This document shows, in pieces, positions 7,007 to 64,000 of a stretch of 64,000 bases of DNA. The position numbers and the translations under genes are program-made. Each line of letters begins with the position of its first letter. Positions within the stretch are counted from its first letter, which is position 1. Under the pieces are notes generated by a model. It had not been told where the DNA came from. It saw nothing but the letters and a program-made list of their open reading frames with translations, and did no database searches. This DNA comes from an uncultured Clostridia bacterium (lineage in GTDB: Bacteria > Bacillota > Clostridia > Christensenellales > CAG-138). The stretch lies in contig CAMKES010000001.1 in NCBI GenBank assembly GCA_946411635.1, positions 3,168 through 67,167 of the forward strand, in the 5' to 3' direction.

Positions 7007-7035
7007 TGGACATCCCGGGCGGTTTGTGCTACACT
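7007..7035 (+). promoter_or_regulatory. Sigma-A-type promoter with extended -10
   Basis: TGGACA-17 nt-(TGC)TACACT. It lies about 190 nt upstream of the ATG at 7226, which implies a long leader. Confidence 0.4.
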
Positions 7036-7225
7036 TTCCCAAAGAACGGGAAGATTCCGCCGCGGTACGATCAACGGGGCTTTGAAAACGCCCCGGGGCG
7101 GCGCCTTCGTGCCTGAAAAAGCATACCGGTCCAACAGACGGTTGGATCGACTGTCAAACGGCGCGCTGGGATCCGGAGCGCCGTTCTGCTATCCTCTGAT
7201 CAGAACAAAACGGGAGGACAAAACA

Positions 7226-8248
7226 ATGGAATTCGGAAAACAGTTCAGGGAGCTCCGCACGGCGCGCGGGCTCACGCAGGAGACCGTCGCGGAAAAGCTG
7301 GGCGTGACGGGGCAGGCGGTCAGCCGTTGGGAACGCGGCGAAACGCTGCCGGACGTGTCGCTTCTGCCGGAGATCTCCGCATACTTCGGGGTCACGATCG
7401 ACGCGCTGTTCGCGCTTTCTGACGATACGCGCATGGAACGCATCCAGAACATGATCTGGGACGTCAAGGTGTTCGATCCCGCGGTCGTCGAGACCGAGCG
7501 GCGGTTCCTGCTTGAAAAGGGCATGAAAGAGCCGGACAATCCGGAACCGTACGCGCTTTTAGCGGACATGGAGAATCATCTTGCCAGGCAGTGCAGAGAG
7601 CGGGCGGAGCTTGCCGCGAGGGAAGCCATCCGCCGCGATCCCTACAACCGGCATGCGTTCGGCGAGATCAGCGACGCCATGGGCGGACGCGCCTCCGACT
7701 GGTACTGCTGGTCCCATCATCGGGAGATCGAGTTCTGGAAAGCGCACGTTGCGGCGTATCCGGACGCGTCGAGAGCGTACCTGTGGCTTTTAGACGCTTT
7801 GATCGACGATCAGCGCTTCGACGAGGCGAGGGCGTATCTTTCCGAAATGGCAAAGCACGAGATGACGTTCCGCGTGCCGCTGTATGAGGGCAACATCGAA
7901 TGGTTTGCGGGCAGCCGGGAAAAAGCGATGGAGATCTGGAACGGCATGTGCGAAACGTATGCCGACGAATGGCTCGTGTGGCTTTCCATGGGCGACGTGT
8001 ACGCACGGCAGGGCGCGTTCGAGCGGGCGATCGAAATGTATGAGAAGGCGATGGAAATCCAGAAACCGCCGCGGATGGTGGACGCGCTCGAGGCGATCGC
8101 GCAGGTATGCGAGCGTATGGGCGATCCGAAACGCGGGATCGAGGCGTTGGAGCGCGAGATCGTGATCCTGAAGGAGGAGATCAACACGACAAGCGGCGAG
8201 ACGGTCGATTCCGTCCGCCGCGAGATCGAACGGCTGAAACAGCTTTGA
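7226..8248 (+). CDS. XRE-family HTH transcriptional regulator fused to a TPR-like helical repeat domain
   Basis: MEFGKQFRELRTARGLTQETVAEKLGVTGQAVSRWERGETLPDVSLLPEISAYFGVTIDALF is a classic HTH_3 domain. The C-terminal part shows TPR-like A/Y/W periodicity (GDVYARQGAFERAIEMYEKAMEI). RBS GGGAGGA lies upstream. Confidence 0.8.
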   Translation: MEFGKQFRELRTARGLTQETVAEKLGVTGQAVSRWERGETLPDVSLLPEISAYFGVTIDALFALSDDTRMERIQNMIWDVKVFDPAVVETERRFLLEKGMKEPDNPEPYALLADMENHLARQCRERAELAAREAIRRDPYNRHAFGEISDAMGGRASDWYCWSHHREIEFWKAHVAAYPDASRAYLWLLDALIDDQRFDEARAYLSEMAKHEMTFRVPLYEGNIEWFAGSREKAMEIWNGMCETYADEWLVWLSMGDVYARQGAFERAIEMYEKAMEIQKPPRMVDALEAIAQVCERMGDPKRGIEALEREIVILKEEINTTSGETVDSVRREIERLKQL

Positions 8249-8254
8249 CGCAAA

Positions 8255-8283
8255 GAGCGGGGGGAGAGCCTCCGCTTTTTTTC
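8255..8283 (+). terminator. Rho-independent terminator
   Basis: agcgggg..cctccgct stem followed by T7. Confidence 0.55.
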
Positions 8284-8295
8284 GTGATCCGGAGC

Positions 8296-8411
8296 CGTAC
8301 CCTTCCTCGTGAGACGGCGTACCCCCACCGTGAAACGGTGTATCCCTCCACCGTGTGACGACCCACTCCTCCACCGTGAGACGGTGTACCCCCCGCCGTG
8401 TGACGGTGGGG
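8296..8411. repeat. Tandem array of five ~22-bp units (consensus about CCGTGAGACGGTGTACCCCTCCA)
   Basis: CGTGnnACG(G/A) cores start at 8308, 8329, 8352, 8375 and 8397 (periods 21, 23, 23, 22). The units at 8326-8340 and 8372-8386 form caccgt-NNN-acggtg mini-palindromes. The array is intergenic between convergent genes. Confidence 0.8.
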
Positions 8412-8510
8412 AAATAAATAATAATAGTAAAGAGATAATGGGCGACGTCCCGTCAGTCGGTATAACCGCGCGCGAAGAGACCGACGCGACCGACCCGACG
8501 GGGGATCCGG

Positions 8511-8951
8511 TCAAAACAGCAGGGACAGCAGTCCGACGACGATCGAAGCGCCGATGCCGTAAACGAGAACGGGACCGGCGATCGTAAACATCTTTGCACC
8601 GATGCCGAGGACGAATCCTTCGGGCCGGTATTCCATCGCGGGCGCTGCGATCGAGTTCGCAAATCCCGTGATCGGCACGACGGTCCCGGCGCCCGCAAAC
8701 GACGCGATCCGGTCGAACACGCCGAGCCCGGTCAGCAGCGCGGTGAGGAAGATCAGCACGATCGAGGAGACGGTCGAAGCGTCTTTGTCGGAGAGCGGGA
8801 TGCGCAGGGCAAGGTCGCGGATTCCCTGTCCGAGCACGCAGATGAGCCCGCCCGTGAGAAACGCCCGGAGGCACTGGAGCGCGACGGGGCTTTTCGGCGC
8901 GCGCCGCGCGACATCCTTTTGATACGCCTTCGCGTCGAACGGCGGCTTCAT
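8511..8951 (-). CDS. spoVAC: Stage V sporulation protein AC
   Basis: 146 aa. FLTGGLICVLGQ..FAGAGTVVPITGFANSI..FTIAGPVLVYG is typical SpoVAC. Confidence 0.85.
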   Translation of the reverse strand: MKPPFDAKAYQKDVARRAPKSPVALQCLRAFLTGGLICVLGQGIRDLALRIPLSDKDASTVSSIVLIFLTALLTGLGVFDRIASFAGAGTVVPITGFANSIAAPAMEYRPEGFVLGIGAKMFTIAGPVLVYGIGASIVVGLLSLLF

Positions 8952-9064
8952 GCGCGCATCCCCTTTTCCGTGTGCTCCGGGGCGCGGGTCTCCCGGTCCG
9001 CGGGCAGCTTTTCGCCGCCGCAGCCGTGCGGATGGATGCGATAGATCTTGGTTCGATGGGGCAT
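8948..9064 (-). CDS. Small ORF (38 aa) coupled to spoVAC
   Basis: AAGGAG lies 6 nt upstream of its ATG, and its stop overlaps the spoVAC start (ATGA). Translation is MPHRTKIYRIHPHGCGGEKLPADRETRAPEHTEKGMRA. No family recognised. Confidence 0.3.
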   Translation of the reverse strand: MPHRTKIYRIHPHGCGGEKLPADRETRAPEHTEKGMRA

Positions 9065-9151
9065 GACGGTCTCCTTTTCGCGGTTTTTTGTCCGATACGG
9101 TTAATCTGCGGGCTTTCCGCGAAAATATACGATAAAATCTGAAAATTTTGC

Positions 9152-9180
9152 TTGACAGACTTGACGCGGTTTGTTATTAT
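9152..9180 (+). promoter_or_regulatory. Sigma-A promoter of rplM-rpsI
   Basis: TTGACA (9152-9157)-17 nt-TATTAT (9175-9180), followed by a ~95-nt leader before the rplM RBS. Confidence 0.7.
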
Positions 9181-9276
9181 AACCGATGTGCCATTGGGTC
9201 GAACTGCGTCACAGCCCCGACTGCGGAACGCCGCAATGCTGCAAAGAATTTGATAAAATTATATGGAGGAATCGCC

Positions 9277-9708
9277 ATGAAGTCCTATATGGCAAAGGGC
9301 GAAACCGTTGAGCGCAGCTGGTATGTCGTGGATGCGACGGATATGATTCTCGGCCGTCTGTCCAGCCAGGTTGCTGCGATCCTTCGCGGTAAGCATAAGC
9401 CCATTTTCACGCCTCACGTTGACTGCGGTGACCACGTCATCATCATCAATGCTGAGAAGGTCCGCCTGACCGGCAAGAAGCTGGATCAGAAGACCCACAT
9501 CCACCACACCGGTTTCCCGGGCGGAATCAAGGAAGTCAAGTATCGTACGCTCCTTGAGACCAAGCCGGAGTTCGCGGTCTACGAGTCCATTCGCCGCATG
9601 ATGCCGAAGGGACCGCTCGGAGCCAAGATGCTCAAGAAGCTGCGCGTATACGCAGGCCCGAACCACAACCACGAAGCCCAGCAGCCTGAGATGCTGGAGC
9701 TCAAATAA
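9277..9708 (+). CDS. rplM: 50S ribosomal protein L13
   Basis: [42 protein letters not shown].. RBS GGAGGA lies upstream of the ATG at 9277. Confidence 0.95.
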
Positions 9709-9726
9709 TCGGAAAGGAGAACGACT

Positions 9727-10119
9727 ATGGCAAAAATCGCTTACATGGGCACCGGCAGACGCAAAAAGTCCGTCGCGCGCGTTCGTCTTCTCCCCGGCAC
9801 CGGCAACATCACGATCAACAAGCGTGACATCGAAGAGTATTTCGGTCTCGAGACCCTCAAGATGATCGTCCGTGCGCCCCTGGTTCTCACGAACCTTTCC
9901 GACAAGTACGACGTGAACGTCAACGTGTACGGCGGCGGCACGACCGGTCAGGCCGGCGCGATCCGTCACGGCATCTCCCGCGCGCTGCTCACCGCCGATC
10001 CGGAGCTTCGCGGCACGCTGAAGAAAGCGGGCTTTTTGACCCGCGATCCGAGAATGAAAGAGCGCAAAAAGTACGGTCTGCATGCAGCCCGCCGCGCACC
10101 CCAGTTCTCCAAGAGATAA
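9727..10119 (+). CDS. rpsI: 30S ribosomal protein S9
   Basis: ..[44 protein letters not shown]. Confidence 0.95.
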
Positions 10120-10132
10120 TCGTCTCAAACAT

Positions 10133-10164
10133 AAAGTCCTGTGCGTTTTGCACAGGACTTTTCA
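10133..10164 (+). terminator. Rho-independent terminator of rplM-rpsI
   Basis: aaagtcctgtgc-gttt-gcacaggacttt followed by T's. Confidence 0.75.
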
Positions 10165-10224
10165 GACTGTCGAAAAAGGTGCCAGACCGTTTACGGCTAA
10201 CAAAGACAAAGGAATACTTGCATG

Positions 10225-10250
10225 AAGAAAGGGCGCATTAGCCCTTTCTT
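10225..10250. terminator. 10-bp hairpin downstream of the minus-strand gene
   Basis: aagaaagggc-gcatta-gccctttctt perfect stem, 22 nt from the stop at 10272. Confidence 0.4.
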
Positions 10251-10271
10251 TGATTGATATTTCGCCGCAAA

Positions 10272-10847
10272 CTATCCGTTAAGCTCCTTCAGGAACGGGT
10301 ATTTCATTTTGAGAAAGAACCGGTAGTCCGGCGCGTCGACGGCGTTCCGGTATTCGTCGAACGTCGTTTTCCGGATCCATTCGAGCCGGCGCTCGGAAAG
10401 CTCCGCGTAGCGCGTGATCACGATCTTTCCCTCGCGCTCGGCCTTCAGAAGCGCTTCGAGCGCGTCCGGCACGAATTCGCGGGAAACGACCTTCTGCGGC
10501 GTTTCGGCAAAGAAGCAGTTTCTGATCTTCTCAAACCGCGTGACCGCGTCGGACGGCGCGACCGAATAGATCCACCCGGGCACGCCCGCGTAAGTGTCCT
10601 CGAGCGCATTCTCATAGTATTCCGAAAAATGCAGCAGCCCGTCCGCCGTAAAGCCGTAGGTCGCCCATTTCTGCCATTTGCCCGCGTGCGCGAAGCCGTG
10701 CTCGCGGCAGGTCTTTTCCACGGCGTTCGAAAGATACACCAGCACGTTTTCGCGCTTGTCCGAAAAATAGATCCGCGGGACGCCCTCGTTGGACGTGCGC
10801 GGTTCAAGGACTTCGATCCCCGGCGTCTGCGATGCGTGATACAGCAT
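10272..10847 (-). CDS. Hypothetical protein (191 aa)
   Basis: AAAGGAGAC RBS lies before the ATG at 10845-10847 (MLYHASQTPGIEVLEPRTSNEG..). The composition looks coding. No family recognised. Confidence 0.6.
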   Translation of the reverse strand: MLYHASQTPGIEVLEPRTSNEGVPRIYFSDKRENVLVYLSNAVEKTCREHGFAHAGKWQKWATYGFTADGLLHFSEYYENALEDTYAGVPGWIYSVAPSDAVTRFEKIRNCFFAETPQKVVSREFVPDALEALLKAEREGKIVITRYAELSERRLEWIRKTTFDEYRNAVDAPDYRFFLKMKYPFLKELNG

Positions 10848-11050
10848 GGTTCCGTCTCCTTTCGTTTCCGCCTTTATCATAGCGGCTTTTCGCGGCAATG
10901 AAAAGACTTGAAATGCGCGCTCGTTTGTGCTATACTGAAACTGCAAAAAACGAGGGGTCCTTTGTGAAAACGGGGGATCCTTTTTCTGTTGCGTTCCGGC
11001 GGCGGATGTGATAATATACTATTCGTAAAAATCTGCGCGGAGGCATGCGT

Positions 11051-12421
11051 ATGCGGATCCTGATCAAAAACGGAACGGTCGTCCGGTCGACCGGCATGAA
11101 AAAAGCGGACGTGCTCGTACAAAACGGCAAGATCGCGAGGATCGCGGAGCGGATCGACGAAAGCGCCGACCGCGTGATCGACGCGTCGGGCTGCTGGCTC
11201 TTTGCCGGCTTCATCGACACGCACACGCACTTCGATCTCGACCTCGGCGTGACGGTCACGGCGGACGATTTCGAAACCGGCACGAAGGCGGCGATCGTCG
11301 GCGGCACGACGACCGTGCTCGATTTTGCGACGCAGGATCACGGCATGACGATGCACGACGCGCTCACGCTCTGGCACAAAAAAGCCGAAAAGAGTTCGTG
11401 CAATTACGGCTTCCACATGGCGGTCTCCGAATGGAACGACGCGCGAAAGGCCGAGGTCGACGACATGTTCCGCGCGGGCGTGAGCTCGTTCAAGATGTAC
11501 ATGGTCTACGACGCGATGAAGGTCACCGACGGGCAGATCTACGACGCGCAGAAGTTCATCGGCAGCCGCGGCGGCGTCATCGGCGTGCACTGCGAAAACT
11601 ACGACGTTCTGCAGGCGCGCATCGCGGAGGAGAAGGCGAAGGGGCATCTGGATCCCACGGCGCATCCGGTCACGCGGCCGCAGGCGGTCGAGGCCGAGGG
11701 CGTGGCGCGGCTCATGCGGATCGCGGAGCTTTCCGGCTCTCCCGCGTGGGTGGTGCATCTGTCCACCGCGGACGGGCTTGAGGAGGTGCGGCGCGCGCGG
11801 AAACGCGGCGTGGAGGTCTATGCCGAAACGTGCCCGCAGTACATCACGCTCGACGTTTCGCAGTACGCGGAGCCGGACGGCGCGAAATACGTCATGTCGC
11901 CGCCGCTTCGCGAAGCGGGGGACCGCGCGGCGATCCTCGACGGCATGAAAAAGAAAGAGATCGACTTCATCGGCACGGACCACTGCTCGTTCACAATGGC
12001 GCAGAAGGCGCTGGGAAAGGACGATTTTTCAAAGATCCCGAACGGCGGCGCGGGCGTGCAGAACCGCGCGGAGCTCGTTTACACGTACGCGGTCGAAACC
12101 GGCGCGATCACGCCCGAACAGATGGCGCTGCTGATGAGCGAACGCGCGGCGCGGCTGTTCGGCATGTTCCCGAAAAAGGGCGTGCTGCGGACGGGGTCCG
12201 ACGCGGATCTCGTGATCTTCGATCCGGACGATCCGCATACGATCTCGTGGAAAACGAATCTCCACGCGTGCGACAACTCGCCGTATGAGGGCGTGCGGGT
12301 CAAAGGCCGCGTGCGCGACGTCATTCTGAACGGCGAGCTCGCCGTGGAACACGGAACACTCGTGAAGCCGTACCTCGGACGGTACGTCTTCCGCAACCCC
12401 TGCGAAAGGTATCGGAAATGA
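11051..12421 (+). CDS. Dihydropyrimidinase / D-hydantoinase-type cyclic amidohydrolase
   Basis: GFIDTHTHFDL metal motif, SSFKMYMVY (carboxylated-Lys region), VHCEN, VVHLST, GTDHCSF. I chose the second ATG (11051), 7 nt after GGAGG. Confidence 0.8.
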   Translation: MRILIKNGTVVRSTGMKKADVLVQNGKIARIAERIDESADRVIDASGCWLFAGFIDTHTHFDLDLGVTVTADDFETGTKAAIVGGTTTVLDFATQDHGMTMHDALTLWHKKAEKSSCNYGFHMAVSEWNDARKAEVDDMFRAGVSSFKMYMVYDAMKVTDGQIYDAQKFIGSRGGVIGVHCENYDVLQARIAEEKAKGHLDPTAHPVTRPQAVEAEGVARLMRIAELSGSPAWVVHLSTADGLEEVRRARKRGVEVYAETCPQYITLDVSQYAEPDGAKYVMSPPLREAGDRAAILDGMKKKEIDFIGTDHCSFTMAQKALGKDDFSKIPNGGAGVQNRAELVYTYAVETGAITPEQMALLMSERAARLFGMFPKKGVLRTGSDADLVIFDPDDPHTISWKTNLHACDNSPYEGVRVKGRVRDVILNGELAVEHGTLVKPYLGRYVFRNPCERYRK

Positions 12422-53716: not shown

Positions 53717-54037
53717 CATTCCGAGCAAGCCGCGACGTTCGGGACGGATGCAGTTCCCGCTGTACTTCGGGCATGAAAAAAAGCCCCAAATCTGGGGCTT
53801 CTTTGGTACCCGGTACGGGTAAAAAATAGACCCAAAAGCACCTTTTTGCCCCCAAAACAGACCGTTTTTAAGGCAAAGCCACCATAAAAACCCGGCATCC
53901 CCCACGCGAAACTGCGGCTACTCCACTCCGCACTCCATTTTTGTAAATAGGGGATGTCCATTTCAGTTCCATTCTGTATTTGCATAAAAGAGTTTAGCAA
54001 GGATCCGCTTTTCTTTGAATGAATTGCCTCCACATGT

Positions 54038-54102
54038 TATCGGCAAAATATGAAAAACAATTGCAATATAATGTTGTAATTTTGCCGATACTGTGCTATA
54101 CT
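54038..54102 (+). promoter_or_regulatory. Fic-gene promoter embedded in a 12-bp inverted repeat
   Basis: TTGTAA (54074-79)-17 nt-(TGC)TATACT (54097-54102). TATCGGCAAAAT (54038-49) and ATTTTGCCGATA (54079-90) are perfect inverted copies, and the right arm overlaps the -35 and spacer. Confidence 0.5.
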
Positions 54103-54138
54103 ATACTTGACTTACGGGAAAGGCAGGAGAGAAAACGG

Positions 54139-55035
54139 ATGAAGTATCTGTCTGTAGCCGATGCGGCAAAGCGGTGGGGACTGTCCGAGCGCAGTGTGCG
54201 AAACTACTGTGCGCAGGGACGGGTCGACGGCGCGTTTCTGATGGGGAAGACATGGAACATTCCGGAAACGGCACAGAAGCCGGATCGCCTGAACAAGCAT
54301 TCAGAGCAGCCGTCGGATCTTTTGTCGCGCCTAAAAGTTGAGAAGAAGGCGAAACTGCACGGCGGGATCTATCATAAGATCCAGATTGATCTCACGTACA
54401 ACTCGAACCACATCGAAGGAAGTACGCTGACGCACGATCAGACGCGTTACATCTTCGAGACGAATACGATCGGCGCGGAAGGAACTGTCAAGGTGGATGA
54501 CGTCGTTGAGACGGCGAATCACTTTACGTGCATCGACATGATCATCGACAGTGCTGCTTATGCGCTGAGCGAGAGCTTCATCAAGCAGCTTCATGCGACT
54601 TTGAAAAACGGAACGTCTGATTCCCGTCAGGACTGGTTTGCTGTCGGCGAATATAAGCGCCTTCCGAACGAGGTGGGGGGCAAAGAGACAACGCCTCCGG
54701 AGCGCGTTGCCGCCGAGATGAAGAATCTTTTGAAGGAATACAACGCGATTGAGGAGAAGAGCTTTGACGATCTCCTTGCGTTTCATTACCGCTTTGAGTC
54801 GATCCATCCGTTTCAGGATGGCAACGGCCGTGTCGGACGTTTGATCCTGTTCAAAGAATGTTTGCGGAACGGCATCGTTCCGTTCATCATTACCGACGAT
54901 CTGAAGATGTACTATTATCGCGGCTTGAAGGAATGGAAGACCGAGCGCGGATATCTTCGTGACACCTGTCTTACCGCGCAGGATCGGTTCAAAAAAGTGC
55001 TGGAATACTTCCGGATCGACTGCGAACAGAAATAG
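54139..55035 (+). CDS. Fic-domain protein (AMPylase family) with N-terminal MerR/excisionase-type HTH
   Basis: HPFQDGNGRVGR matches the Fic motif HPFxxGNGRxxR. The N-terminus is LSVADAAKRWGLSERSVRNYCAQGRV. Confidence 0.85.
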   Translation: MKYLSVADAAKRWGLSERSVRNYCAQGRVDGAFLMGKTWNIPETAQKPDRLNKHSEQPSDLLSRLKVEKKAKLHGGIYHKIQIDLTYNSNHIEGSTLTHDQTRYIFETNTIGAEGTVKVDDVVETANHFTCIDMIIDSAAYALSESFIKQLHATLKNGTSDSRQDWFAVGEYKRLPNEVGGKETTPPERVAAEMKNLLKEYNAIEEKSFDDLLAFHYRFESIHPFQDGNGRVGRLILFKECLRNGIVPFIITDDLKMYYYRGLKEWKTERGYLRDTCLTAQDRFKKVLEYFRIDCEQK

Positions 55036-55379
55036 CATTTCTGCCGGTTTGTTTTACCGGGCCGTTTGTCATAATGATTTATAGAGGGAGAAATAGCCGT
55101 GCAAACGGCTGCCGAACTGCGCCCGTTAGTTTCTCTCTCGCTCCATACATCATGCACGATATCTCCGGACGCAGTTCATTTTTCCGAATCGGGAACACCA
55201 ACTGCAAAAACGACTGTCTCGCTTGCTGAGGCAGGCGTTTTTGTCTTTGGCGATCCCGGGTTGATTTTTGTTATCGTTTATGAAAAGACAGCATTATCAG
55301 TTTAGTATTGGGTATCTATTTCGCATGTTTTACCTCTTTTTGTTCATTATACACTTATTTGTGTTTTGTTTCCACAGAA

Positions 55380-55396
55380 ATTACAGTTTCATTACA
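55380..55396 (+). promoter_or_regulatory. Direct-repeat box ATTACA-N5-ATTACA upstream of the response-regulator gene
   Basis: ATTACAgtttcATTACA, then 32 nt, then TACACT (55429-34). ATG at 55463. Confidence 0.55.
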
Positions 55397-55462
55397 ACTG
55401 AGTCGCAGAATTGACGCGCGAAATATGGTACACTGAAGAGGAAAGACTCGAAGGAGCATACT

Positions 55463-56125
55463 ATGAAAAACAGGATTCTTGTGGTAGAGGACGACGCGGC
55501 GATCCGCGACGCGGTGCTTTTAAATCTGCAGTTTGCGGATTACGACGCCGTTGCGTTCGACGACGGCAGAAAAGCGGCGGATGCGCTCGAAGACGATCAC
55601 GCGTTCGACCTTGCGCTTTTGGACATCATGCTGCCGGGCATGGACGGATTTGAGTTGTTCGGGATCATGGAGCGCTTCGGCATTCCGGTGATCTACATGA
55701 CCGCAAAGACCGACTCCGCGTCCGAGATCAAAGGGCTTCGGGACGGCGCGGAGGACTATATCGTAAAGCCGTTCGATCCCTTAACGCTGATGGTGCGCAT
55801 CGAAAAAGTGCTGAAGCGCGTCGGCAAGTGGAACGCAGTCTATCGCGTCAAGGATATTGTCGTCAACACCGAAACGCATACGGTCACGAAGGGCGGCGAG
55901 TCGATCGAGCTGCAGCCGCTCGAATTCGACGTGCTTGTCGCGCTGCTGCGGCACAAGAACATGACCGTCTCGCGCGAGCGGCTGTTGAACGAAGTATGGG
56001 GCTTCGATTATCTCGGCGAAACGCGCATGGTGGACGTCAAAATCTCCGCGCTGCGCAAAAAGCTCGATCTGGAGGACGCGATCCGCTCCATTCATAAGCT
56101 CGGCTATCGGCTGGAGGATCGGTAA
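55463..56125 (+). CDS. OmpR/PhoB-family response regulator
   Basis: Receiver domain (ILVVEDD..DLALLDIMLPGMDG..KP) plus a winged-helix effector domain (LQPLEFDVLVALL..VDVKISALRKKL..GYRL). Confidence 0.92.
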   Translation: MKNRILVVEDDAAIRDAVLLNLQFADYDAVAFDDGRKAADALEDDHAFDLALLDIMLPGMDGFELFGIMERFGIPVIYMTAKTDSASEIKGLRDGAEDYIVKPFDPLTLMVRIEKVLKRVGKWNAVYRVKDIVVNTETHTVTKGGESIELQPLEFDVLVALLRHKNMTVSRERLLNEVWGFDYLGETRMVDVKISALRKKLDLEDAIRSIHKLGYRLEDR

Positions 56126-57505
56126 ATGAAGCTGTATCAACGCATTACGCTGCTTGTCTCTATCGTCTTGACCGTCGTCATCCTTGCCGTGTCGCTGTCA
56201 CTGCTGCTGTTTGCAAAGAATACGATCCTGTCGCTGTCGGTTGAGCAGGTGCAGCGGAAGCAGCAGACGCTGCGCACGTCGTTTTCCGAGATGGCGAACT
56301 ACTACGCGGCAAACAGTGATTCCGACGCCGTACATGACTCGCTGGTCCGCTACTGCTTCACGCGCTTTGCCGATCAGACCTCCGTGCTGATGCGGAACGG
56401 CGAGGCAGTGGTATCCGGCGTGACGGTCGACCCGTCGGTATACGTGCAGCAAAGCGATGACTACGGCGAAGCAGAGCCGGTTGCTGTTACGGTGCAGGGG
56501 CGACGGCTTCTGATCGCGGGAAGCAGCACGTCAGTCGGCGGCAAATCCTATGATGTGTATGTGGTCGAGGATGTCTCGGACGTTTACGATCGCATTTCGC
56601 GCATGGCGTGGATCTTTGCGGGCGTCAGTCTCGGGTCAATCGTGCTCGGAGCGGTTATCGTCACCCTGCTCGTCCGACGCAGTACAAGACCGATCACGAA
56701 GCTTTCCGACGCAGCAAAGGAGATTGCAGACGGCGCGTACGAAAAACGCGTTATGATCCGCACCAAGGACGAGATCGGAACGCTCGGCAAGGATTTCAAC
56801 CGCATGGCGGACGCGGTGGAAACGAAGATTTCGGAGCTTTCCGAGCGCAACGAACGGCAGCGCCTGTTTATCGGCGGCGTCACGCATGAATTCAAAACGC
56901 CCATGACCGGGCTGATCCTCCACGCCGGTCTTTTACGCCGCGCGAACCTTTCCGAGGACGAGCGCGACGCTTCTCTTGCCCATATTGAGACGCAAACGCA
57001 ATGGCTCGAACGGCTGACGCAGAACCTTTTGAAGCTTACGACCTCCGACGAGGAGATCGAATTACAAAGCGTCAATATTCCGGAATTACTGGACGCCGTC
57101 AAAGAAGGCGTCGAACCGAAGCTCAACGAGCGCGGTGCAGCGCTTTCCGTGCAATGCGAAACGGATACGCTTGTCCTGAACCCCGATCTGATGCGCTCGC
57201 TTCTCAACAATCTGATCGTCAATGCGGCAAACGCTTACGACGCAGATGCGCCCGAAAAGCCGATCCTGCTGACCGTAACGGGCAAGACCTTCTCGGTGTC
57301 CGATCGCGGCAGAGGGATTCCAAAGGAAGCGATCGACCGTATCTTCGAGCCGTTCTTCCGTGTCGACAAAAGCCGCAGCAAAAAACAGGGCGGCAGCGGC
57401 TTGGGACTTGCGCTTGTCAAAACGATCGCCGATGCCCACGGCGCAACGATTACCGTCGACAGCGAACCCGGCAAAGGCACGACGGTTTCGGTGACGCTGC
57501 CGTAA
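56126..57505 (+). CDS. Sensor histidine kinase (2 TM, HAMP, HisKA, HATPase_c)
   Basis: FIGGVTHEFKTPMTGL (H-box), N-box NLIVNAANAY, DRGRGIP, GGSGLGLALV. Starts directly after the regulator stop. Confidence 0.9.
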   Translation: MKLYQRITLLVSIVLTVVILAVSLSLLLFAKNTILSLSVEQVQRKQQTLRTSFSEMANYYAANSDSDAVHDSLVRYCFTRFADQTSVLMRNGEAVVSGVTVDPSVYVQQSDDYGEAEPVAVTVQGRRLLIAGSSTSVGGKSYDVYVVEDVSDVYDRISRMAWIFAGVSLGSIVLGAVIVTLLVRRSTRPITKLSDAAKEIADGAYEKRVMIRTKDEIGTLGKDFNRMADAVETKISELSERNERQRLFIGGVTHEFKTPMTGLILHAGLLRRANLSEDERDASLAHIETQTQWLERLTQNLLKLTTSDEEIELQSVNIPELLDAVKEGVEPKLNERGAALSVQCETDTLVLNPDLMRSLLNNLIVNAANAYDADAPEKPILLTVTGKTFSVSDRGRGIPKEAIDRIFEPFFRVDKSRSKKQGGSGLGLALVKTIADAHGATITVDSEPGKGTTVSVTLP

Positions 57506-57726
57506 TAGATTCTCCGGAGGAGAATTCACGTACAGGGATTCCGCAAAAGGTTGGTAGCGACCGTTTTTCGTTGTGAGGGCGCTTGCAACCGAGCAGAAAA
57601 ACCGAGCGTGACCTTTTGCGGAGAGGAGGAGCGGCGAGGCGGATGAGCGACGGTGTTTCATAATAAACGGAGTTTTTTTGTTCGCATAAACTCCGCCGCG
57701 AGCAAAGCTGAGCTCGCGACGACGAG
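57505..57726. repeat. Hairpin-dense intergenic element
   Basis: attctcc-gga-ggagaat, ccgcaaaaggt (57540s)..accttttgcgg (57610s) long-range inverted repeat, cggagttt..aaactccg, cgcgagc-aaagctga-gctcgcg. Confidence 0.4.
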
Positions 57727-57743
57727 ATTACATTTTCATTACA
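57727..57743 (+). promoter_or_regulatory. Direct-repeat box ATTACA-N5-ATTACA
   Basis: ATTACAttttcATTACA, then 31 nt, then TATGCT (57775-80). ATG at 57811. Confidence 0.55.
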
Positions 57744-57810
57744 CTTTGGTGCGGTTTTTTCCGCCGCCGTTCGGTATGCTTGATGCAGAAACCCGAAAAG
57801 GAGTGATTTC

Positions 57811-59247
57811 ATGAAAAAGCATATTTGTATCATTCTTCTTGCAGCACTGCTGCTTCTCTGCGCCTGTCAGCCGACGCCGGAAAATCCGATCGTGGTCGGG
57901 AAGGATCAGGATATCATGATCGGAAAAGCGGAGGAGGAAGCGGTTTACGTTTCTCTCACGCCCGATCCGGGTGAGCAGCGCGTGGATTGGGCGGATCGGC
58001 TCGGCGCACCGGAGCATTATACGGCGACGCTGACCAGCGCGAACGGACATCTGCATGTGGAAGTGGACGCGAACGTATATTTGCCGGATACGGAGCTTCC
58101 GATTGTCCGTGTTGAGCAGCAGCGGTTTACGGACGAGGACGCGCGCCGCTTTGCGACAGCGCTGCTGGGTGAGAATCCGCAGTGCATCGATCCGTATCAA
58201 TACAATAACCGAACGAAAGCCATGTATGAAGAGGATATCCGGCGGCGCATGGACGCGCTGGACAACTGGGAGGACTACGGCAGCATTGTTTATGACCAAT
58301 ATGAGACCAAAGCAGAGTTTCAGGCGGCGCTGAAAAAGCTGATGGAGGAAGCCGAGCATGCGCCGGACACGCTCGATACCTTTGCCCCGACCTATGAATG
58401 GCGGACGATGTATGAGGGCAAGGAGGACGGACTTTCGGAGACGCAGGATCAGATAATGGAACTGCTGACCCTGAATGCGGACGGAACGCGGACTGGACTG
58501 AATATAATACGGAGCACATCGGGAAGCTCGCTGCGCTATACGCGCAACTGCGAAGAGCCCGTTTCCTATCCGTTTGATTGCAGCCAATACCCGAACGAGC
58601 TGAAAACGACGGAGGTGCAGGCTATAGCTATCGCAGAGGAAACGCTTACAAAGATGGGGCTTACGCATCTTCGGTTCGCCTTGATCAAAAGCATCCGCAA
58701 CTATACCGGCGACGTCGCGCGGAAAAACAACCCCTACCGCCCATACTGGGCGATTGTGTTTACGCCCGAAGTGAACGGCGCGCAGATGACATACGCCTTT
58801 CAGAGAATGACGGAGGTCAGCGAATACAATCGCATGTGGCAAAACGAGTGCTGCTTTGTCATGGTGGACGACGACGGAATCGCCGCGCTTTCTTACAATA
58901 GCCCCTGCAGCGTATCGGAGACATCGGTTTCCGCCGCATCGTTGATGCCGTTTGAAAAAATCCGGGAGATTTTTGAAAAGATGGTGCTGATCGTCGACAA
59001 CGACGCGGACCTCGAGGGCATCGACGTGCGCTACCGTATCACAAACGTGCGGTTGGGGCTTGTCAGCATTCCGGAACAGAACGGTGATGGCGGGCTTTTG
59101 GTGCCTGCATGGGATTTCATCGGCATTTGGGAGTACGACGATCATGTGCCGGATGAGCAGAGAGAGCTTGGCAGAACGACAGACGAGACCTGGTCATATC
59201 TCACGATCAACGCCGTCGACGGCAGCATCATCAAACGTCAGCCGTGA
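57811..59247 (+). CDS. Paralogous lipoprotein 1 (478 aa), uncharacterised family
   Basis: Signal peptide and lipobox ..LLLLCAC|QPTPE. Conserved C-terminal block LMPFEKIREIFEKM..RLGLVSIPEQNGDGGLLVPAWDFIG..YLTINAVDGSIIKR. Confidence 0.85.
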   Translation: MKKHICIILLAALLLLCACQPTPENPIVVGKDQDIMIGKAEEEAVYVSLTPDPGEQRVDWADRLGAPEHYTATLTSANGHLHVEVDANVYLPDTELPIVRVEQQRFTDEDARRFATALLGENPQCIDPYQYNNRTKAMYEEDIRRRMDALDNWEDYGSIVYDQYETKAEFQAALKKLMEEAEHAPDTLDTFAPTYEWRTMYEGKEDGLSETQDQIMELLTLNADGTRTGLNIIRSTSGSSLRYTRNCEEPVSYPFDCSQYPNELKTTEVQAIAIAEETLTKMGLTHLRFALIKSIRNYTGDVARKNNPYRPYWAIVFTPEVNGAQMTYAFQRMTEVSEYNRMWQNECCFVMVDDDGIAALSYNSPCSVSETSVSAASLMPFEKIREIFEKMVLIVDNDADLEGIDVRYRITNVRLGLVSIPEQNGDGGLLVPAWDFIGIWEYDDHVPDEQRELGRTTDETWSYLTINAVDGSIIKRQP

Positions 59248-59276
59248 GGATTGCACGAACAGCCGGAGGGAAATCC

Positions 59277-60710
59277 ATGAAGAAACAAGTATTTATCATT
59301 CTGATAGCATCTCTTTTACTTCTTACCGCCTGTCAGCCCACGCCGGAGAGCCCGATCGTGGTCGGGAAGGATCAGGATATCATGATCGGAAAAGCAGAGG
59401 AGGATGCCGTATATGCCTCCGGAACATCCGAACCGGACGGCAAGACGGTCGACTGGTATGCGCGGCTCGGTGCGCCGGAGCATTACACAGCTTCTCTTGT
59501 CAGCGGCGGAGGACACCTGAAGGTTACGGTGGACGCGCCGATCGTTCTGCCGGATACGGAGCTTCCGATCGTCCGGATCACGCCGGTAAAGTTTTCCGAT
59601 GAGGACGCGCACCGTTTCGTGGCAGCATTTTTAGGCGATAATCCGCAGTGCGTCGATCCGTGGGGCGAAAACAACCGCACGCGGGCGTCTTACGAAAAAG
59701 AAATCCTCATGCGCAGAGATGCCTTGGAGCACTGGAACGAATACGGAAATCTGATTTACGGAGAGAACTTCGAAACGAGAGAGAACTTTGAACGATACCT
59801 TCAGAAATTGATGGCACAGGCGGTGAACGCGCCGGAACGGCCGGAGACGTTTGCACCGACCTATGAATGGGAGGAACCGCACGTTTGGACACCGGAAGGT
59901 GAGAAGAGAACCAACGACCGCTATCTGACGTTCTTGACGGTCAACGCGGACGGTTCGCAGTCAAGACTGGACATCTTCAGCAGCAGCGAATACGGAAACA
60001 GCAGCGTTCGCTACCAACGCGACATCGTCGACGACGTGCACTATCCCATTGACGGAGCGAAATGGCAGAATGAGCTGAATCTTTCCGAAGCGGACGCGCG
60101 CGCCGAAGCGGAACGCGTACTTGCAAAAATGGGAATCTCCCACCTCGGCTGTGCATTTGCAAAGAGCGTACGCATCTATCCGGCCGACGTACGGCTTGAC
60201 GGCGTTCCGTATCGCGCCTATTGGGCACTGATTTATACCCCTGCAGTCAACGGCGCAGAGACCACGTTTACACAGCAGTCCACGACGGAACCGAACGACT
60301 ATGCGCGCGAATGGGAATATGAGCGCTGCTACGTACTGGTGGACGACGGCGGCGTTGCGGGACTGTTTTACAACGACCCTTGCGTCGTGCAGGAGGTCAC
60401 CGTACCCGCCGCGACCCTGCTGCCGTATGAAAAGATTCTGGATATCTTTGAAAAGATGGTGCTGATCGTGGAAAACAACGCGGACCCGATGGACCGCGAC
60501 GAGCAATATTGCATCACGTCGGTACGGCTGGGCTTGGTCAGCATACCGGAGCAGAACGGCGAGGGCGGGCTTTTGGTGCCTGCGTGGGACTTTCTGGGCG
60601 ATCGGGTCGACGAAAACCGCGCTGCGTTCGTGTCAGACGAGCGGTACTCCTTCCTGACGATCAACGCGATCGACGGCAGCATCATCAAGCGCGGTTCGTG
60701 GGTCGGCTGA
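59277..60710 (+). CDS. Paralogous lipoprotein 2 (477 aa)
   Basis: ..LLLLTAC|QPTPESPIVVGKDQDIMIGKAEE, near-identical to the paralog 1 N-terminus. The gap to paralog 1 is 29 nt with no separate box. Confidence 0.85.
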   Translation: MKKQVFIILIASLLLLTACQPTPESPIVVGKDQDIMIGKAEEDAVYASGTSEPDGKTVDWYARLGAPEHYTASLVSGGGHLKVTVDAPIVLPDTELPIVRITPVKFSDEDAHRFVAAFLGDNPQCVDPWGENNRTRASYEKEILMRRDALEHWNEYGNLIYGENFETRENFERYLQKLMAQAVNAPERPETFAPTYEWEEPHVWTPEGEKRTNDRYLTFLTVNADGSQSRLDIFSSSEYGNSSVRYQRDIVDDVHYPIDGAKWQNELNLSEADARAEAERVLAKMGISHLGCAFAKSVRIYPADVRLDGVPYRAYWALIYTPAVNGAETTFTQQSTTEPNDYAREWEYERCYVLVDDGGVAGLFYNDPCVVQEVTVPAATLLPYEKILDIFEKMVLIVENNADPMDRDEQYCITSVRLGLVSIPEQNGEGGLLVPAWDFLGDRVDENRAAFVSDERYSFLTINAIDGSIIKRGSWVG

Positions 60711-60762
60711 TCGGACAGCGATCTTCTACTGCAATCGCATTTTGCATTTCCGACGCATTTTC

Positions 60763-60779
60763 ATTACAGTTTCATTACG
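60763..60779 (+). promoter_or_regulatory. Direct-repeat box ATTACA-N5-ATTACG
   Basis: ATTACAgtttcATTACG, then 31 nt, then TATGAT (60811-16). ATG at 60849. Confidence 0.55.
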
Positions 60780-60848
60780 CTTTCGTGAGGTTTTTTTCTC
60801 CGGATTCCGGTATGATGGATCAAAGATCCGAAAAAAAGGAGTGATCTC

Positions 60849-62231
60849 ATGAAGAAACGTGCTATCAGCATCCTTATTACAGCGCTCTTGCTGCTTTGCG
60901 CCTGTCAGCCGACGCCGGAGGAGGAAGCCGTTGTAAACAAGGCCGATCAGCAGCAGATGCTTTCCAATGCGGAGAAGCAGGACGAGCGCATGGAGATCGT
61001 GGATCTCTATGAACGTCTCGGCGCGCCGAAGGAATACAAGACGAGCCTCTCCGGCACGGAAGGACGTCTGCAGGTGGAAGTTGACGCAAAGGTGATCCTG
61101 CCGGAGGGCGAACTGCCGATCATTCGTGTTGAGCCGATCGGCTTCACCAAGAGCGACGTGCTCGGCTTTGCGGATGAGCTTTTACCGCCGGGTTCGGAGT
61201 TTGTGGAACCGATCTGGGTCGACGATCCGCGCGATTACGGAGATGACGAGGAGCACCGCCTGTACCTATATTCCAAGGGCTTCTATGCGCACGAGATCGA
61301 AAAGATGCGTTGGGCGATCGAACACTGGAACGACGGCGGAAGCAACCTCTATGACATGGACGATTCCACGCCCGCCGATGTGGAAAAGCGCATCAACGAA
61401 GCGCTGTATGAGCAGAGTCTCGCGCCGGACAAGCTTCCGCGCCTCGACCGGCAGAGTGTGGATATGGGATTGATCACCGCGACGGTCGATGATCTGACCT
61501 TTTCAAACGTCCACTGCATCAGCAACCCTTGGAACGGATTGACAGAAGAGCTTACATACTGCCGCAATTTCTTCCACAATCCGAACGTCACGAGTATGTG
61601 TAACATCCCGAACGAAATCCCGTATCGGGACGCGGAAGCGCAGGCGCAGGCGCTGATCAAAAAACTTCCCGTCGAAGGTTTTGTACTGAGCGCTTCATGG
61701 TCGGATATCTATGACGACGACTACTTCCGCGACATTCCGTGCCGGATGTTTGTTTTCACGCGCGCATTCGGCGGCGTTACGGAGACCGTGACCAATCAGG
61801 ATCAGACGTTTGAGGAATACAACCACTTCCGCGGGTACGAAAAAATCACGGTCACGGTGGATGCGGACGGGATCGCAGGCTTCAGCTATCAATATCCGTA
61901 CAGGATCGGGGAGACCGTCGTCGGACAGACGAATCTGCTGCCGTTCTCCGAGATCGAGAAGATCTTCAACCGCATGATCCTTGTTTACAATAACCACCTG
62001 ATGGACGAGTCGTTTGAGCATATCAGCACAAAATATGTCATTACCACGATCCGGTTGGGACTCGCCAATATCCCGGAAAAAGACTCGGAAACAGGTCTGC
62101 TCGTTCCGGCATGGGACTTTATGGGGTACCATCATTCTATCAATGAGGGCACAGACAACTTCACCAACGAGCTCGAATCGTTCCTGACGATCAACGCGAT
62201 CGACGGCAGCATCATCAACCGCGCGGGATAA
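60849..62231 (+). CDS. Paralogous lipoprotein 3 (460 aa)
   Basis: ..LLLLCAC|QPTPEEE. C-terminal block LLPFSEIEKIFNRM..RLGLANIPEKDSETGLLVPAWDFMG..FLTINAIDGSIINR. Confidence 0.85.
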   Translation: MKKRAISILITALLLLCACQPTPEEEAVVNKADQQQMLSNAEKQDERMEIVDLYERLGAPKEYKTSLSGTEGRLQVEVDAKVILPEGELPIIRVEPIGFTKSDVLGFADELLPPGSEFVEPIWVDDPRDYGDDEEHRLYLYSKGFYAHEIEKMRWAIEHWNDGGSNLYDMDDSTPADVEKRINEALYEQSLAPDKLPRLDRQSVDMGLITATVDDLTFSNVHCISNPWNGLTEELTYCRNFFHNPNVTSMCNIPNEIPYRDAEAQAQALIKKLPVEGFVLSASWSDIYDDDYFRDIPCRMFVFTRAFGGVTETVTNQDQTFEEYNHFRGYEKITVTVDADGIAGFSYQYPYRIGETVVGQTNLLPFSEIEKIFNRMILVYNNHLMDESFEHISTKYVITTIRLGLANIPEKDSETGLLVPAWDFMGYHHSINEGTDNFTNELESFLTINAIDGSIINRAG

Positions 62232-62439
62232 TTCCCGTATCCGAAAGACCTCCCGTACCGCATCGGCGGCGCGGGAGGTCTTTGTGCAGTATGGAACGTT
62301 TGCGCTTCCGTATGCGTCATTCTGAATAGAGGGATTGTCGGTTCGGCAGGGAGAAAAAAGCGGATCGGCGGCGCGGGAGGCCTTGCGTTTCGACCTCCGG
62401 CAAAGGGTCATAAATCGTCTGACAGGATTTTACATCTTT

Positions 62440-62494
62440 GTGACAATTCCGTGACATCTCTGTGACAACTCTGCAACAACTCTGCGACATCACT
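62440..62494 (+). repeat. Five helically phased 11-bp repeats (GYGACAnCTCT-like)
   Basis: GTGACA at 62440, 62451 and 62462, GCAACA at 62473, GCGACA at 62484. The period is exactly 11 bp. Confidence 0.8.
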
Positions 62495-62533
62495 CGTTTA
62501 TAGTAGAAGTCGATGAGGGGGGTCCGCGCATTC

Positions 62534-62550
62534 ATTACAAATCGATTACA
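62534..62550 (+). promoter_or_regulatory. Direct-repeat box ATTACA-N5-ATTACA
   Basis: ATTACAaatcgATTACA, then 31 nt, then TACGAT (62582-87). ATG at 62606. Confidence 0.55.
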
Positions 62551-62605
62551 ACGCGGAAACAACTTTTCTCACAAAATCGGCTACGATACAAAAGGAGAGA
62601 ACGAG

Positions 62606-63997
62606 ATGAAACGAATTGCGGTCCTGCTGACGTTCGTGCTGTTTCTGTGCGCCTGTCAGCCCACGCCGGAAGAGGAAGTCGTGATCCATAAGAACGAAGG
62701 CACGCTCGAACAGCAGCTTGCGGCGACGCCGGTTCCGGACTATTTGGAAGAAACCGGCGCGAACACCCTGCGTCTTTCGCTGAACGTCCCGGAACGGGTG
62801 CAGGAGAACTTCGACGGGAACGCCGTCGGCGGACATCTGTATATCGAGATGGACGCCGAGGTGGAGATCCCGAACGTGGAAAAGGTCTCGGTCCTGCGCG
62901 GACAGGTGGGTTACGAGCCGGAGAAGGCGGCGGAGCGCATCGCGAAGCTTCTTTTGGGCGACGGGCCCTATACCCGTCCCGGACACAGCGAACGGGCCTA
63001 TGCCGAAGTCCATCTGGCGTTCTATCAGAAATGGCTCGAAGCGCTGGATCAGAAGCCGTACGGCCCGGCTGCGGACTACGACGCCATCCGGAACGAAGTA
63101 CAGCAGCATCTGGACGCCTATGCCGAGAGCTATCGAATGGCGACCGGAGAAAACGACCATCCGAGTCAGCCGTGGACCGGATCCTTTGACGACGCCAAGG
63201 AAGCGATCAGCATCAGCAGCGGCGAAAAGGGAATCGGCATGCACAACGGCGACGCCAGTAACTTTACTTACGGCGCGGGCAGTCATCCGTCCTTCGGCGG
63301 CTGGATGGATCATCCCAGAGGCCCCCGGAACGAAGAAGAACGGCAATGGCTTCATAACGCTGCGGACTTTGCGAACGGCTTGGGCTTCGCGCGTGTGATC
63401 CCACAATATATCAATGACGCGGATGAAATGACCCGGATGCGATACAGCGTCGAGACCGGGTTTGAAAGCGGGTATAAGGTTTTCTCCCTGCTGCCCGTTT
63501 ACGAGGGCATTCCGGTTTACCCGTACGTGACCATGTACGGCTCCGACACCGGACGGCAGGCGGCGGGTGTTCCCTTTGCCCGCAATCTGGATCAGGAGGA
63601 GATCTTCGGCACGCTGTACAACGGCGAAGTGGTTCAGCTGCAGTGGAGAAGTCCCTTTACGGTCACACAGGTGGAAAACGAGAACGTGCCGCTGCTGCCG
63701 TTCGAGCGGATCATGGAGATCTTCAAGCGGCAGGTGTTCATGAGCGTTTATCTCGATGCGGGATACGATATGACGTACAAGGTCACGGGCATCCAGTTCT
63801 CCTATATGCGGGTGCAGGTTCCGAATTCCGACGAATACCGGCTGGTTCCCGTATGGGATTTCATCGGCTACGTGGTTTACGACTGGGAGGCGACGCCCGG
63901 CGAGAAAGCGATCAGTCAGGCCTTTTTCGAGCGTATGTCCATCTTGACGATCAACGCCGTGGACGGCAGCGTCATCGACCGGTATCTCGGCTATTGA
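62606..63997 (+). CDS. Paralogous lipoprotein 4 (463 aa, most divergent)
   Basis: ..VLFLCAC|QPTPEEE. C-terminal block LLPFERIMEIFKRQ..RLVPVWDFIG..ILTINAVDGSVIDR. The stop is 3 nt before the window end. Confidence 0.85.
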   Translation: MKRIAVLLTFVLFLCACQPTPEEEVVIHKNEGTLEQQLAATPVPDYLEETGANTLRLSLNVPERVQENFDGNAVGGHLYIEMDAEVEIPNVEKVSVLRGQVGYEPEKAAERIAKLLLGDGPYTRPGHSERAYAEVHLAFYQKWLEALDQKPYGPAADYDAIRNEVQQHLDAYAESYRMATGENDHPSQPWTGSFDDAKEAISISSGEKGIGMHNGDASNFTYGAGSHPSFGGWMDHPRGPRNEEERQWLHNAADFANGLGFARVIPQYINDADEMTRMRYSVETGFESGYKVFSLLPVYEGIPVYPYVTMYGSDTGRQAAGVPFARNLDQEEIFGTLYNGEVVQLQWRSPFTVTQVENENVPLLPFERIMEIFKRQVFMSVYLDAGYDMTYKVTGIQFSYMRVQVPNSDEYRLVPVWDFIGYVVYDWEATPGEKAISQAFFERMSILTINAVDGSVIDRYLGY

Positions 63998-64000
63998 GGA

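Follow-up and report, generated by a model that had tools for sequence, protein, structure and literature searches.

The stretch analysed here, referred to as the window, is 64,000 nucleotides (nt) of contig CAMKES010000001.1 from an uncultured Clostridia bacterium. Within it, a direct-repeat box of the form ATTACA-N5-ATTACR precedes a two-component operon and each of three transcription units that encode lipoproteins of the DUF6034 family. We suggest, at a probability of about three in four, that these boxes form the high-affinity core of the operator to which the adjacent OmpR/PhoB-type response regulator binds. A comparison with related loci supports the reading put forward in the initial annotation, an autoregulated two-component system with the lipoprotein array as its regulon. 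The link between box and lipoprotein array held up, but the regulon, which had been called local, and the array itself both reach beyond the window.

Box promoters in the window and in related loci

The ATTACA-N5-ATTACR pattern occurs exactly four times in the window, each time on the plus strand, which is the gene strand, and each time between genes (Table 1). In 100 dinucleotide-preserving shuffles the mean number of matches was 0.02, and four were never reached. Allowing two mismatches added a single site, 55369-55385, which is the adjacent upstream half-site of box 1, and seven of the 14 ATTACA hexamers in the window lie inside boxes. The half-sites of all four boxes are direct repeats at a spacing of exactly 11 base pairs (bp). 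Across the four promoters the distance from the TAnnnT hexamer to the start codon ranges from 18 to 32 nt, whereas the distance from box to hexamer is a constant 31-32 nt; therefore, the box appears to be positioned relative to the -10 element and not to the gene. If TAnnnT is the -10 element, the consensus half-sites would lie at about -60 to -55 and -49 to -44. No -35-like hexamer was found 16-18 nt upstream of any of the four -10 elements, and a consensus promoter scanner picked up none of the four box promoters. The regulator promoter has an extended -10 (TGgTACACT), and the lipoprotein promoters have TATGCT, TATGAT and TACGAT only.

When the four upstream regions are aligned, the promoters at 57.7 and 60.7 kb prove to be whole-promoter duplicates, alike over their full length, and the 55.4-kb and 62.5-kb promoters have little in common beyond the box, a T-rich patch and the -10. 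The same contrast had been drawn in the initial annotation, where the box positions, TAnnnT hexamers and start codons were also exactly right, as was the placing of the adjacent regulator in the OmpR/PhoB family, in which Response_reg and Trans_reg_C domains were found. The description of the core pair stands as well, but weaker flanking half-sites and a second promoter before unit 3 had been overlooked. Likewise, the window does contain three lipoprotein units, but these hold four DUF6034 genes, and the last unit continues past the end of the window.

To place the boxes in context, one genome per species was scanned with an alignment of the four DUF6034 paralogues, which yielded 75 loci (given L numbers below) from rumen and gut Clostridia of the Christensenellales, Oscillospiraceae and Lachnospiraceae; their genes were identified by BLAST comparison with the proteins of the window. 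In 49 of the 60 loci that could be evaluated, the DUF6034 array comes immediately after a regulator-kinase pair. Identity of the regulators to the window protein runs from 99 % down to 45 %, and arrays hold up to nine DUF6034 genes per locus. Exact ATTACR-N5-ATTACR was found 34 times in 1.17 Mb of these loci, always on the gene strand. The wider pattern DTWACA-N5-DTWACA gave 71 exact matches in 1.24 Mb (loci plus window), 70 of them on the gene strand, and 61 fell in regulator or DUF6034 promoter zones (45-130 nt upstream), which make up 1.4 % of the DNA. A further four precede a permease gene, and two precede DUF6034 genes initially called with too-late starts. As background, 1.4 % of random 140-nt windows carry a box at no more than one mismatch, as do 4 of 196 promoter zones on their opposite strand.

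The spacing seen in the window recurs in the related loci. A TAnnnT hexamer follows the 61 promoter-zone boxes at 31 nt in 29 cases and at 32 nt in seven; a secondary peak at 26 nt is TATGGT, which overlaps the TGgTACACT of regulator promoters. In the rabbit-gut Oscillospiraceae the distance from box to -10 is 43 nt at the regulator promoter, one helical turn more, and 32 nt at the lipoprotein promoter. Those checks proposed in the initial annotation that could be run computationally came out in its favour: boxes are conserved at orthologous loci, 36 of 61 stand 31 or 32 nt upstream of a -10 hexamer, and matches away from promoters are rare, with 67 of the 71 exact matches preceding regulator, DUF6034 or permease genes in sense orientation. 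When the regulators were single-linkage clustered at 80 % identity and one mismatch was allowed in the box, 16 of the 25 clusters had a box in the regulator promoter, 21 had one in the DUF6034 promoter, and 13 had one in each.

Conservation in these promoters is confined to islands. Twelve orthologous regulator promoters (alignment A4) share two, TTGTTTYCACAnnAATTACAnTTTnrTTACA and CGAAATATGrTAmACT; the 19-20 nt between them and all DNA upstream vary freely. Fourteen DUF6034 promoters (alignment A5) share rACrCATTTTC-ATTACA-nnTTC-ATTACA-sTTTsrTGAkGTtTTT and CGGTAyGCT, again with a variable stretch between. Because these footprints conserve flanking half-sites too, the element would be larger than the box alone, and we read the operator as an 11-bp-phased array of three to four half-sites with T-rich spacers, of which the middle two match the consensus.

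Unit 3 has a second, upstream promoter-like module, in which TTTACA, three copies of GTGACA, GCAACA and GCGACA stand at exact 11-bp spacing, with TATAGT 9 nt beyond the last of them. This distance places the final array unit at -27 to -22, in the same helical register as the box promoters. In alignment A6, loci L004, L005 and L009 carry a homologous array of four half-sites, 9 nt and TATAAT, placed directly before a D4-type or permease-type box; box 4 itself, its 31-nt spacing and TAsGAT are kept in L004, L005, L059 and L009. Since these relatives carry the homologous array before such boxes, the 62429-62489 array appears to be a conserved part of the unit 3 regulatory region and not debris. 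We also considered the array as the orphaned promoter of a deleted gene, and rejected this, as gene-complete relatives keep it at the same place.

Table 1. Coordinates of the genes, boxes and promoter elements discussed in the text (window positions, except for the last four rows, which refer to related loci). All -10 assignments are putative; aa, amino acids.
Feature	Position	Strand	Details
OmpR/PhoB-family response regulator, 220 aa	55463..56125	+	Pfam Response_reg PF00072, 1e-22; Trans_reg_C PF00486, 7e-21
Sensor histidine kinase, 459 aa	56126..57505	+	Pfam HAMP, HisKA, HATPase_c; open reading frame list
DUF6034 lipoprotein D1, 478 aa	57811..59247	+	PF19499, 1.2e-65; 222.7 bits
DUF6034 lipoprotein D2, 477 aa	59277..60710	+	PF19499, 5.2e-60; 204.1 bits
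DUF6034 lipoprotein D3, 460 aa	60849..62231	+	PF19499, 6.1e-57; 194 bits
DUF6034 lipoprotein D4, 463 aa	62606..63997	+	PF19499, 1.9e-43; 149.5 bits
Box 1, ATTACA-N5-ATTACA	55380-55396	+	half-sites 55380-85, 55391-96; regulator promoter
Box 2, ATTACA-TTTTC-ATTACA	57727-57743	+	half-sites 57727-32, 57738-43; unit 1 promoter
Box 3, ATTACA-GTTTC-ATTACG	60763-60779	+	half-sites 60763-68, 60774-79; unit 2 promoter
Box 4, ATTACA-AATCG-ATTACA	62534-62550	+	half-sites 62534-39, 62545-50; unit 3 promoter
-10 of regulator promoter, TACACT	55429-34	+	32 nt after box 1; ATG 55463
-10 of unit 1, TATGCT	57775-80	+	31 nt after box 2; ATG 57811
-10 of unit 2, TATGAT	60811-16	+	31 nt after box 3; ATG 60849
-10 of unit 3, TACGAT	62582-87	+	31 nt after box 4; ATG 62606
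Operator of two-component operon	55369..55396	+	half-sites TTTCCA (55369-74), ATTACA (55380-85), ATTACA (55391-96), 11-bp register
Extended -10, TGgTACACT	55426..55434	+	TACACT hexamer 55429-34
Unit 1 (D1-D2) promoter	57727..57780	+	box, weak third half-site GTGCGG (57749-54), T-run, TATGCT
Unit 2 (D3) promoter	60752..60816	+	GACGCA (60752-57), box, weak GTGAGG (60785-90), TATGAT
Unit 3 upstream promoter-like module	62429..62504	+	six half-sites 62429-62489, then TATAGT 62499-62504
Unit 3 proximal promoter	62534..62587	+	box and TACGAT
Terminator-like hairpin after D3	62244..62283	+	-34.5 kcal/mol, z-score -5.2, then UUUGUG
Box-preceded permease locus, L001	13108-17471		
Box-preceded permease locus, L009	7394-9237		
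Box-preceded permease locus, L049	11636-13478		
Box-preceded permease locus, L045	4563-5181		

The reader of the box

Within a genome, the box varies jointly at both promoters, and the variants follow changes in the recognition helix of the neighbouring regulator. The window regulator and its clade have the helix ETRMVDVKISALRKKL with the half-site ATTACA, and most other loci have the PhoB-like helix xTRTVD[V/I/M/T]H[I/V]xxLRKKL with (A/T)T(T/A)ACA. In the rabbit-gut Oscillospiraceae, where the helix is ETRVLDIKI[F/H]SLRKKL, the box is ATAAGA-N5-ATAAsA at regulator and lipoprotein promoters alike. A third clade, with D[I/M/T]RTVDVR[V/I]AN[L/I]RKKL or DPHTVEVRIANIRKKL, has GGTAAC repeats; all five of its loci carry them at the DUF6034 promoter, and three carry them at the regulator promoter too. 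The helix stretches that contrast are ETRMVDVKISAL versus ETRVLDIKIFSL or DxRTVDVRVAN, the latter two alongside the variant boxes ATAAGA and GGTAAC. Five genomes (L013, L014, L018, L021 and L049) hold two tandem regulator-kinase-DUF6034 modules. In L013, L014 and L021 the two modules clearly differ in half-site variant and helix, and in L018 and L049 they do so only partly. Because the tandem modules of the former three use different variants, a single global regulator could not explain these differences. We regard this as the strongest argument that the neighbouring regulator reads the box, which the comparison supports; the match of helix to half-site is itself a correlation and not proof of contact. 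The tandem modules also point to an apparent insulation between paralogous signalling modules.

The regulator and kinase belong to no named system. The kinase gene abuts the regulator stop codon, and the N-terminal region of the kinase has no domain match in Pfam. The nearest solved relative of the regulator is MtrA (2gwr, 4.6e-44), and the regulator falls below the cut-off of every named NCBIfam equivalog: it scores 178 bits with the MtrA model (cut-off 300), 172 with PhoB (296), 156 with CseB (350), 151 with VanR (350) and 143.1 with YycF, that is WalR (NF040534; 340). The kinase reaches 199.8 bits with the WalK model NF033092, over the catalytic core only, against a cut-off of 725. It appears, from these scores, that the two-component system resembles named systems in its working and is a member of none.

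In the mechanism that we propose, the kinase would phosphorylate the regulator on a signal, presumably extracytoplasmic, and regulator dimers would bind head-to-tail on the two consensus half-sites at about -60 to -44. This pair would nucleate further protomers on the weaker half-sites that lie in register with it, at about -71, -38 and -27, and the bound regulators would help RNA polymerase onto promoters that have no -35 and a weak -10. The regulator-kinase operon would thereby come under positive feedback, with the extended -10 as a possible source of basal expression, and the three DUF6034 units would be co-induced, as would, in relatives, a linked permease and ATPase of the ATP-binding cassette (ABC) type. 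The positive sign of regulation is inferred from geometry only: a box at -60 to -44, no -35 and a weak -10.

Several observations weigh against this proposal. The proximal -10 of unit 3 is only 18 nt from the start codon, so the leader would be about 11 nt long and would start inside the ribosome-binding site. The half-sites that would overlap the -35 region are poor (GTGCGG, GTGAGG), and the consensus pair lies one dimer position further upstream; a contact between regulator and polymerase is therefore conjectural. In some clusters of regulators, mostly from the Lachnospiraceae, the regulator promoter lacks a box. Common ancestry links many of the related loci, so raw site counts overstate the number of independent observations, and the cluster-level numbers are fairer. 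In a metagenome scan for ATTACA-N5-ATTACA-N31-32-TAnnnT, one of 122 among the matches listed, from at least 120 stretches, stood before a homologue of the linked permease, and the rest were chance matches in AT-rich DNA. Because the bare scan gave almost only chance matches, the box is informative only in its genomic context, and such a scan is no guide to its specificity within a genome of 60 % G+C. Moreover, the box matches the WalR consensus on the opposite strand, and a second regulator could read it too.

This last point leads to the idea that the boxes are real operators of some other OmpR-family regulator, for example of the WalR type, with the local system merely among its targets. The reverse complement TGTAAT-N5-TGTAAT is a perfect WalR consensus, and WalR sites work on either strand (PMC4168254, Table 1). 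The specificities of related regulators often overlap. Such a regulator would nevertheless have to account for box variants that follow the recognition helix of the adjacent protein, for the tandem modules of L013, L014 and L021 that each have their own variant, and for the box that precedes the regulator gene itself in 16 of 25 clusters, and the local pair is itself far from WalR and WalK (143 bits against 340; 200 against 725). We consider this explanation quite improbable.

It is also unlikely, to a similar degree, that the adjacent regulator binds the boxes as a repressor or anti-activator, with negative autoregulation and lipoprotein genes kept silent until release, even though the sign of regulation is not readable from sequence and repression from upstream sites is known in the OmpR/PhoB family, as in the PhoP repression complex (PMC11825685). 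The consensus half-sites lie upstream of the polymerase footprint, clear of the -10 and the start. Promoters with no -35 and with TATGCT, TATGAT or TACGAT would be poor unaided, as is typical of activator-dependent promoters, and activation from one face of the helix would require just the strict phasing to the -10 that is observed (31-32 nt, with 43 nt in one clade and 9 nt between long array and hexamer). Far less credible still is the notion that the boxes have no regulatory role and are leftovers of promoter duplication in a tandem gene family, or a generic AT-rich, UP-like element. The tandem paralogy of the genes and the whole-promoter duplication at 57.7 and 60.7 kb fit it, but the regulator and unit 3 promoters share only the box and its spacing, and the box is kept where regulators are 45-60 % identical and the surrounding DNA is unalignable. 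In addition, conservation of the C at position 5 and of the ACA triplet goes beyond what AT-richness would give, and the opposite strand of the same AT-rich zones yields no more than the 4 in 196 given above.

The lipoprotein array and its neighbours

All four window genes exceed the Pfam gathering score for DUF6034 (27 bits) over their full length, and all four proteins have an L-x-A-C lipobox, which in D1 is LCAC with the invariant Cys19. D2, which shares 57 % identity with D1, begins 29 nt downstream of it and lacks a separate box. For D1, an AlphaFold2 model based on 63 homologues reached a mean predicted local distance difference test score (pLDDT) of 91.6 and a predicted template modelling score (pTM) of 0.88. 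Its best fold match is 5coz, an uncharacterised Eubacterium rectale protein (Foldseek E 2.6e-10), followed by the C-terminal domain of YpeB, 5boi, which consists of three tandem PepSY domains (Foldseek E 3.5e-4, probability 1.00; template modelling score 0.46 on the target and 0.24 on the query). These were the only two confident matches, and from the model the family appears to consist of PepSY/YpeB-like repeats. By sequence, the proteins have no match to Pfam PepSY, and the search for related solved structures returned spurious coiled-coil matches only. No mention of DUF6034 was found in the literature searched, and a PADLOC search for links to defence systems found nothing for DUF6034, the permease, the CARDB protein or the kinase.

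Two segments of these genes stand apart in their degree of likeness. The DNA of the lipobox and CQPTPE linker (57851-57881, 59317-59347, 60889-60919 and 62640-62670) is far more alike among the four paralogues than the remaining gene, and the C-terminal LTINA(V/I)DGS(I/V)I segments are likewise much more alike. Either strong constraint on these segments or gene conversion among the paralogues could account for this.

The window stops three bases past D4, and the continuation of the array can be seen in L076, which BLAST showed to be 98.8 % identical to the window over 57726-64000 and which is a relative and not the same genome. There (5563-12203), four more DUF6034 genes follow D4 at gaps of about 10 nt, which brings the array to at least eight paralogues; because D4 of L076 precedes four such closely spaced genes, unit 3 would be an operon of at least five genes. 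The 3' end of the L076 kinase gene is only 93.6 % identical to that of the window, and the spacer between kinase and D1 is unrelated. As homology restarts at 57726, one base before box 2, directly after this unrelated spacer, the comparison suggests recombination at the unit 1 promoter.

Among possible ends of transcripts, only the hairpin after D3 looks like a strong terminator; neither of the folds at candidate intrinsic terminators after the kinase and after D2 is significant, and there may therefore be read-through from both genes into the next unit. A search of the leaders for RNA elements in Rfam gave no match at E <= 1. Immediately 5' of box 2, at 57668-57718, lie two stable hairpins (-23.1 kcal/mol together, z-score -3.1), neither of which precedes a T-run; relatives do not share the spacer in which they lie. 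The hairpins could serve to terminate or insulate the kinase transcript. The D3-D4 spacer also contains a 24-nt direct repeat, 92 % identical between its copies. The copy at 62259-62282 is the 3' arm of the hairpin after D3, and for the copy at 62361-62384 there is no 5' arm to pair with.

In about 40 of the 75 loci the DUF6034 array is followed by a homologue of a permease, fused or split in two. In L001, L009, L045 and L049 a box with a third half-site, AAAACA, stands before this multi-pass membrane protein of about 590 amino acids, and in L060 a looser box, with two mismatches to the consensus, stands before a split form. The permease has no Pfam or NCBIfam match. Downstream of it in L001 are an ABC ATPase, a CARDB-domain protein and a further DUF6034 gene; the best named match of the ATPase is the lantibiotic-protection model TIGR03740, at 181.6 bits against a cut-off of 309.75. 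From the placing of the boxes we infer that an ABC-type permease is also box-controlled in relatives, which is a prediction.

Just upstream of the two-component operon, at 54019-55035, lies a Fic/DOC-domain gene with an N-terminal helix-turn-helix. We considered its product as the box-binding protein and rejected it. No such gene adjoins the module in L001, the sole relative locus checked upstream, and the Fic/DOC gene is therefore probably unrelated to the module.

Known systems and meaning

The standard operator of the OmpR/PhoB family consists of hexamers in direct repeat at 11-bp spacing, and PhoP of Bacillus subtilis recognises TT(A/T/C)ACA repeats. In kind, the element described here is an ordinary autoregulated operator of that family, and the regulatory principle is textbook. 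The WalR operator, TGTWAH-N5-TGTWAH, likewise consists of direct hexamer repeats 11 bp apart, with TGTAAT-N5-CGTAAT as the Streptococcus mutans gbpB site (PMC4168254). The window shares with it the two direct hexamers, the 5-bp spacer and an OmpR-type winged-helix reader, and the reverse complements of all four boxes fit the WalR pattern. However, the window kinase has 459 amino acids and no PAS match, whereas WalK has about 600 and PAS domains; yycHIJ partner genes are missing from the window locus; the predicted regulon is a local lipoprotein array and not cell-wall hydrolases; and the window boxes keep a fixed orientation and a fixed distance to the -10.

For the long array, PhoP of Streptomyces and Mycobacterium offers a parallel. 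Its PHO boxes are 11-nt direct-repeat units in arrays of two, four or six, its own operon is autoregulated, and tandem PhoP dimers, arranged head-to-tail, bind such arrays cooperatively and replace the -35 contact (PMC2275107; PMC11825685). Exactly this multi-dimer PHO-box layout is seen at 62429-62489, where six units are followed by a -10 at a distance of 9 nt. In contrast, the consensus units of the box promoters sit one dimer position upstream and those over the -35 are degenerate, the window regulator is no orthologue of PhoP/PhoB by its PhoB model score (172 bits against 296), and no phosphate-related genes lie near the module.

In gene content, the relatives recall lantibiotic immunity (LanRK/LanI/LanFEG), with an OmpR-type pair, lipoproteins, a permease with an ABC ATPase, and repeated boxes. 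Each feature of membership that was tested, a LanF-type ATPase, a MutE/MutG-type permease and a LanI-type lipoprotein, failed: the L001 ATPase is far below the TIGR03740 cut-off, the permease matches neither MutE/MutG nor any other model, and the DUF6034 fold appears from the model to be PepSY/YpeB-like and not LanI-like, with the genes in arrays of up to nine diverged paralogues. No lantibiotic genes were seen, and no systematic search for such genes was made. As for YpeB, the DUF6034 proteins may resemble it in fold, as the model suggests, and are likewise extracytoplasmic; they differ in being lipid-anchored, about 470 amino acids long and encoded in arrays beside a two-component system, and in sequence they match neither Pfam PepSY nor a solved structure.

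A wider interpretation is speculative, and we think it rather doubtful in its entirety. The locus would be a widespread, undescribed, signal-inducible envelope module of gut and rumen Clostridia, in which a two-component system switches on up to nine rapidly diverged PepSY-like lipoproteins and an ABC exporter. Anchored at the surface, the paralogues would form a repertoire of inhibitors, decoys or immunity proteins aimed at different secreted hydrolases, proteases, bacteriocins or phage proteins, and modules within one genome would be insulated by co-evolved variants of box and helix. If true, this would be an envelope module functionally analogous to LanI/LanFEG/LanRK immunity and built from unrelated parts.

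The finding is of value in that a defined operator and a dedicated sensor are attached to the DUF6034 lipoproteins, a family that is uncharacterised and widespread. As the probable conserved output of a dedicated two-component system, DUF6034 gains a first functional handle. With its predictable promoter architecture and a natural series of variants in operator and recognition helix, the system makes the inducing signal, the regulon and the specificity code of the winged helix directly testable. The tandem modules with their differing box variants provide a natural case of insulation between paralogous pathways.

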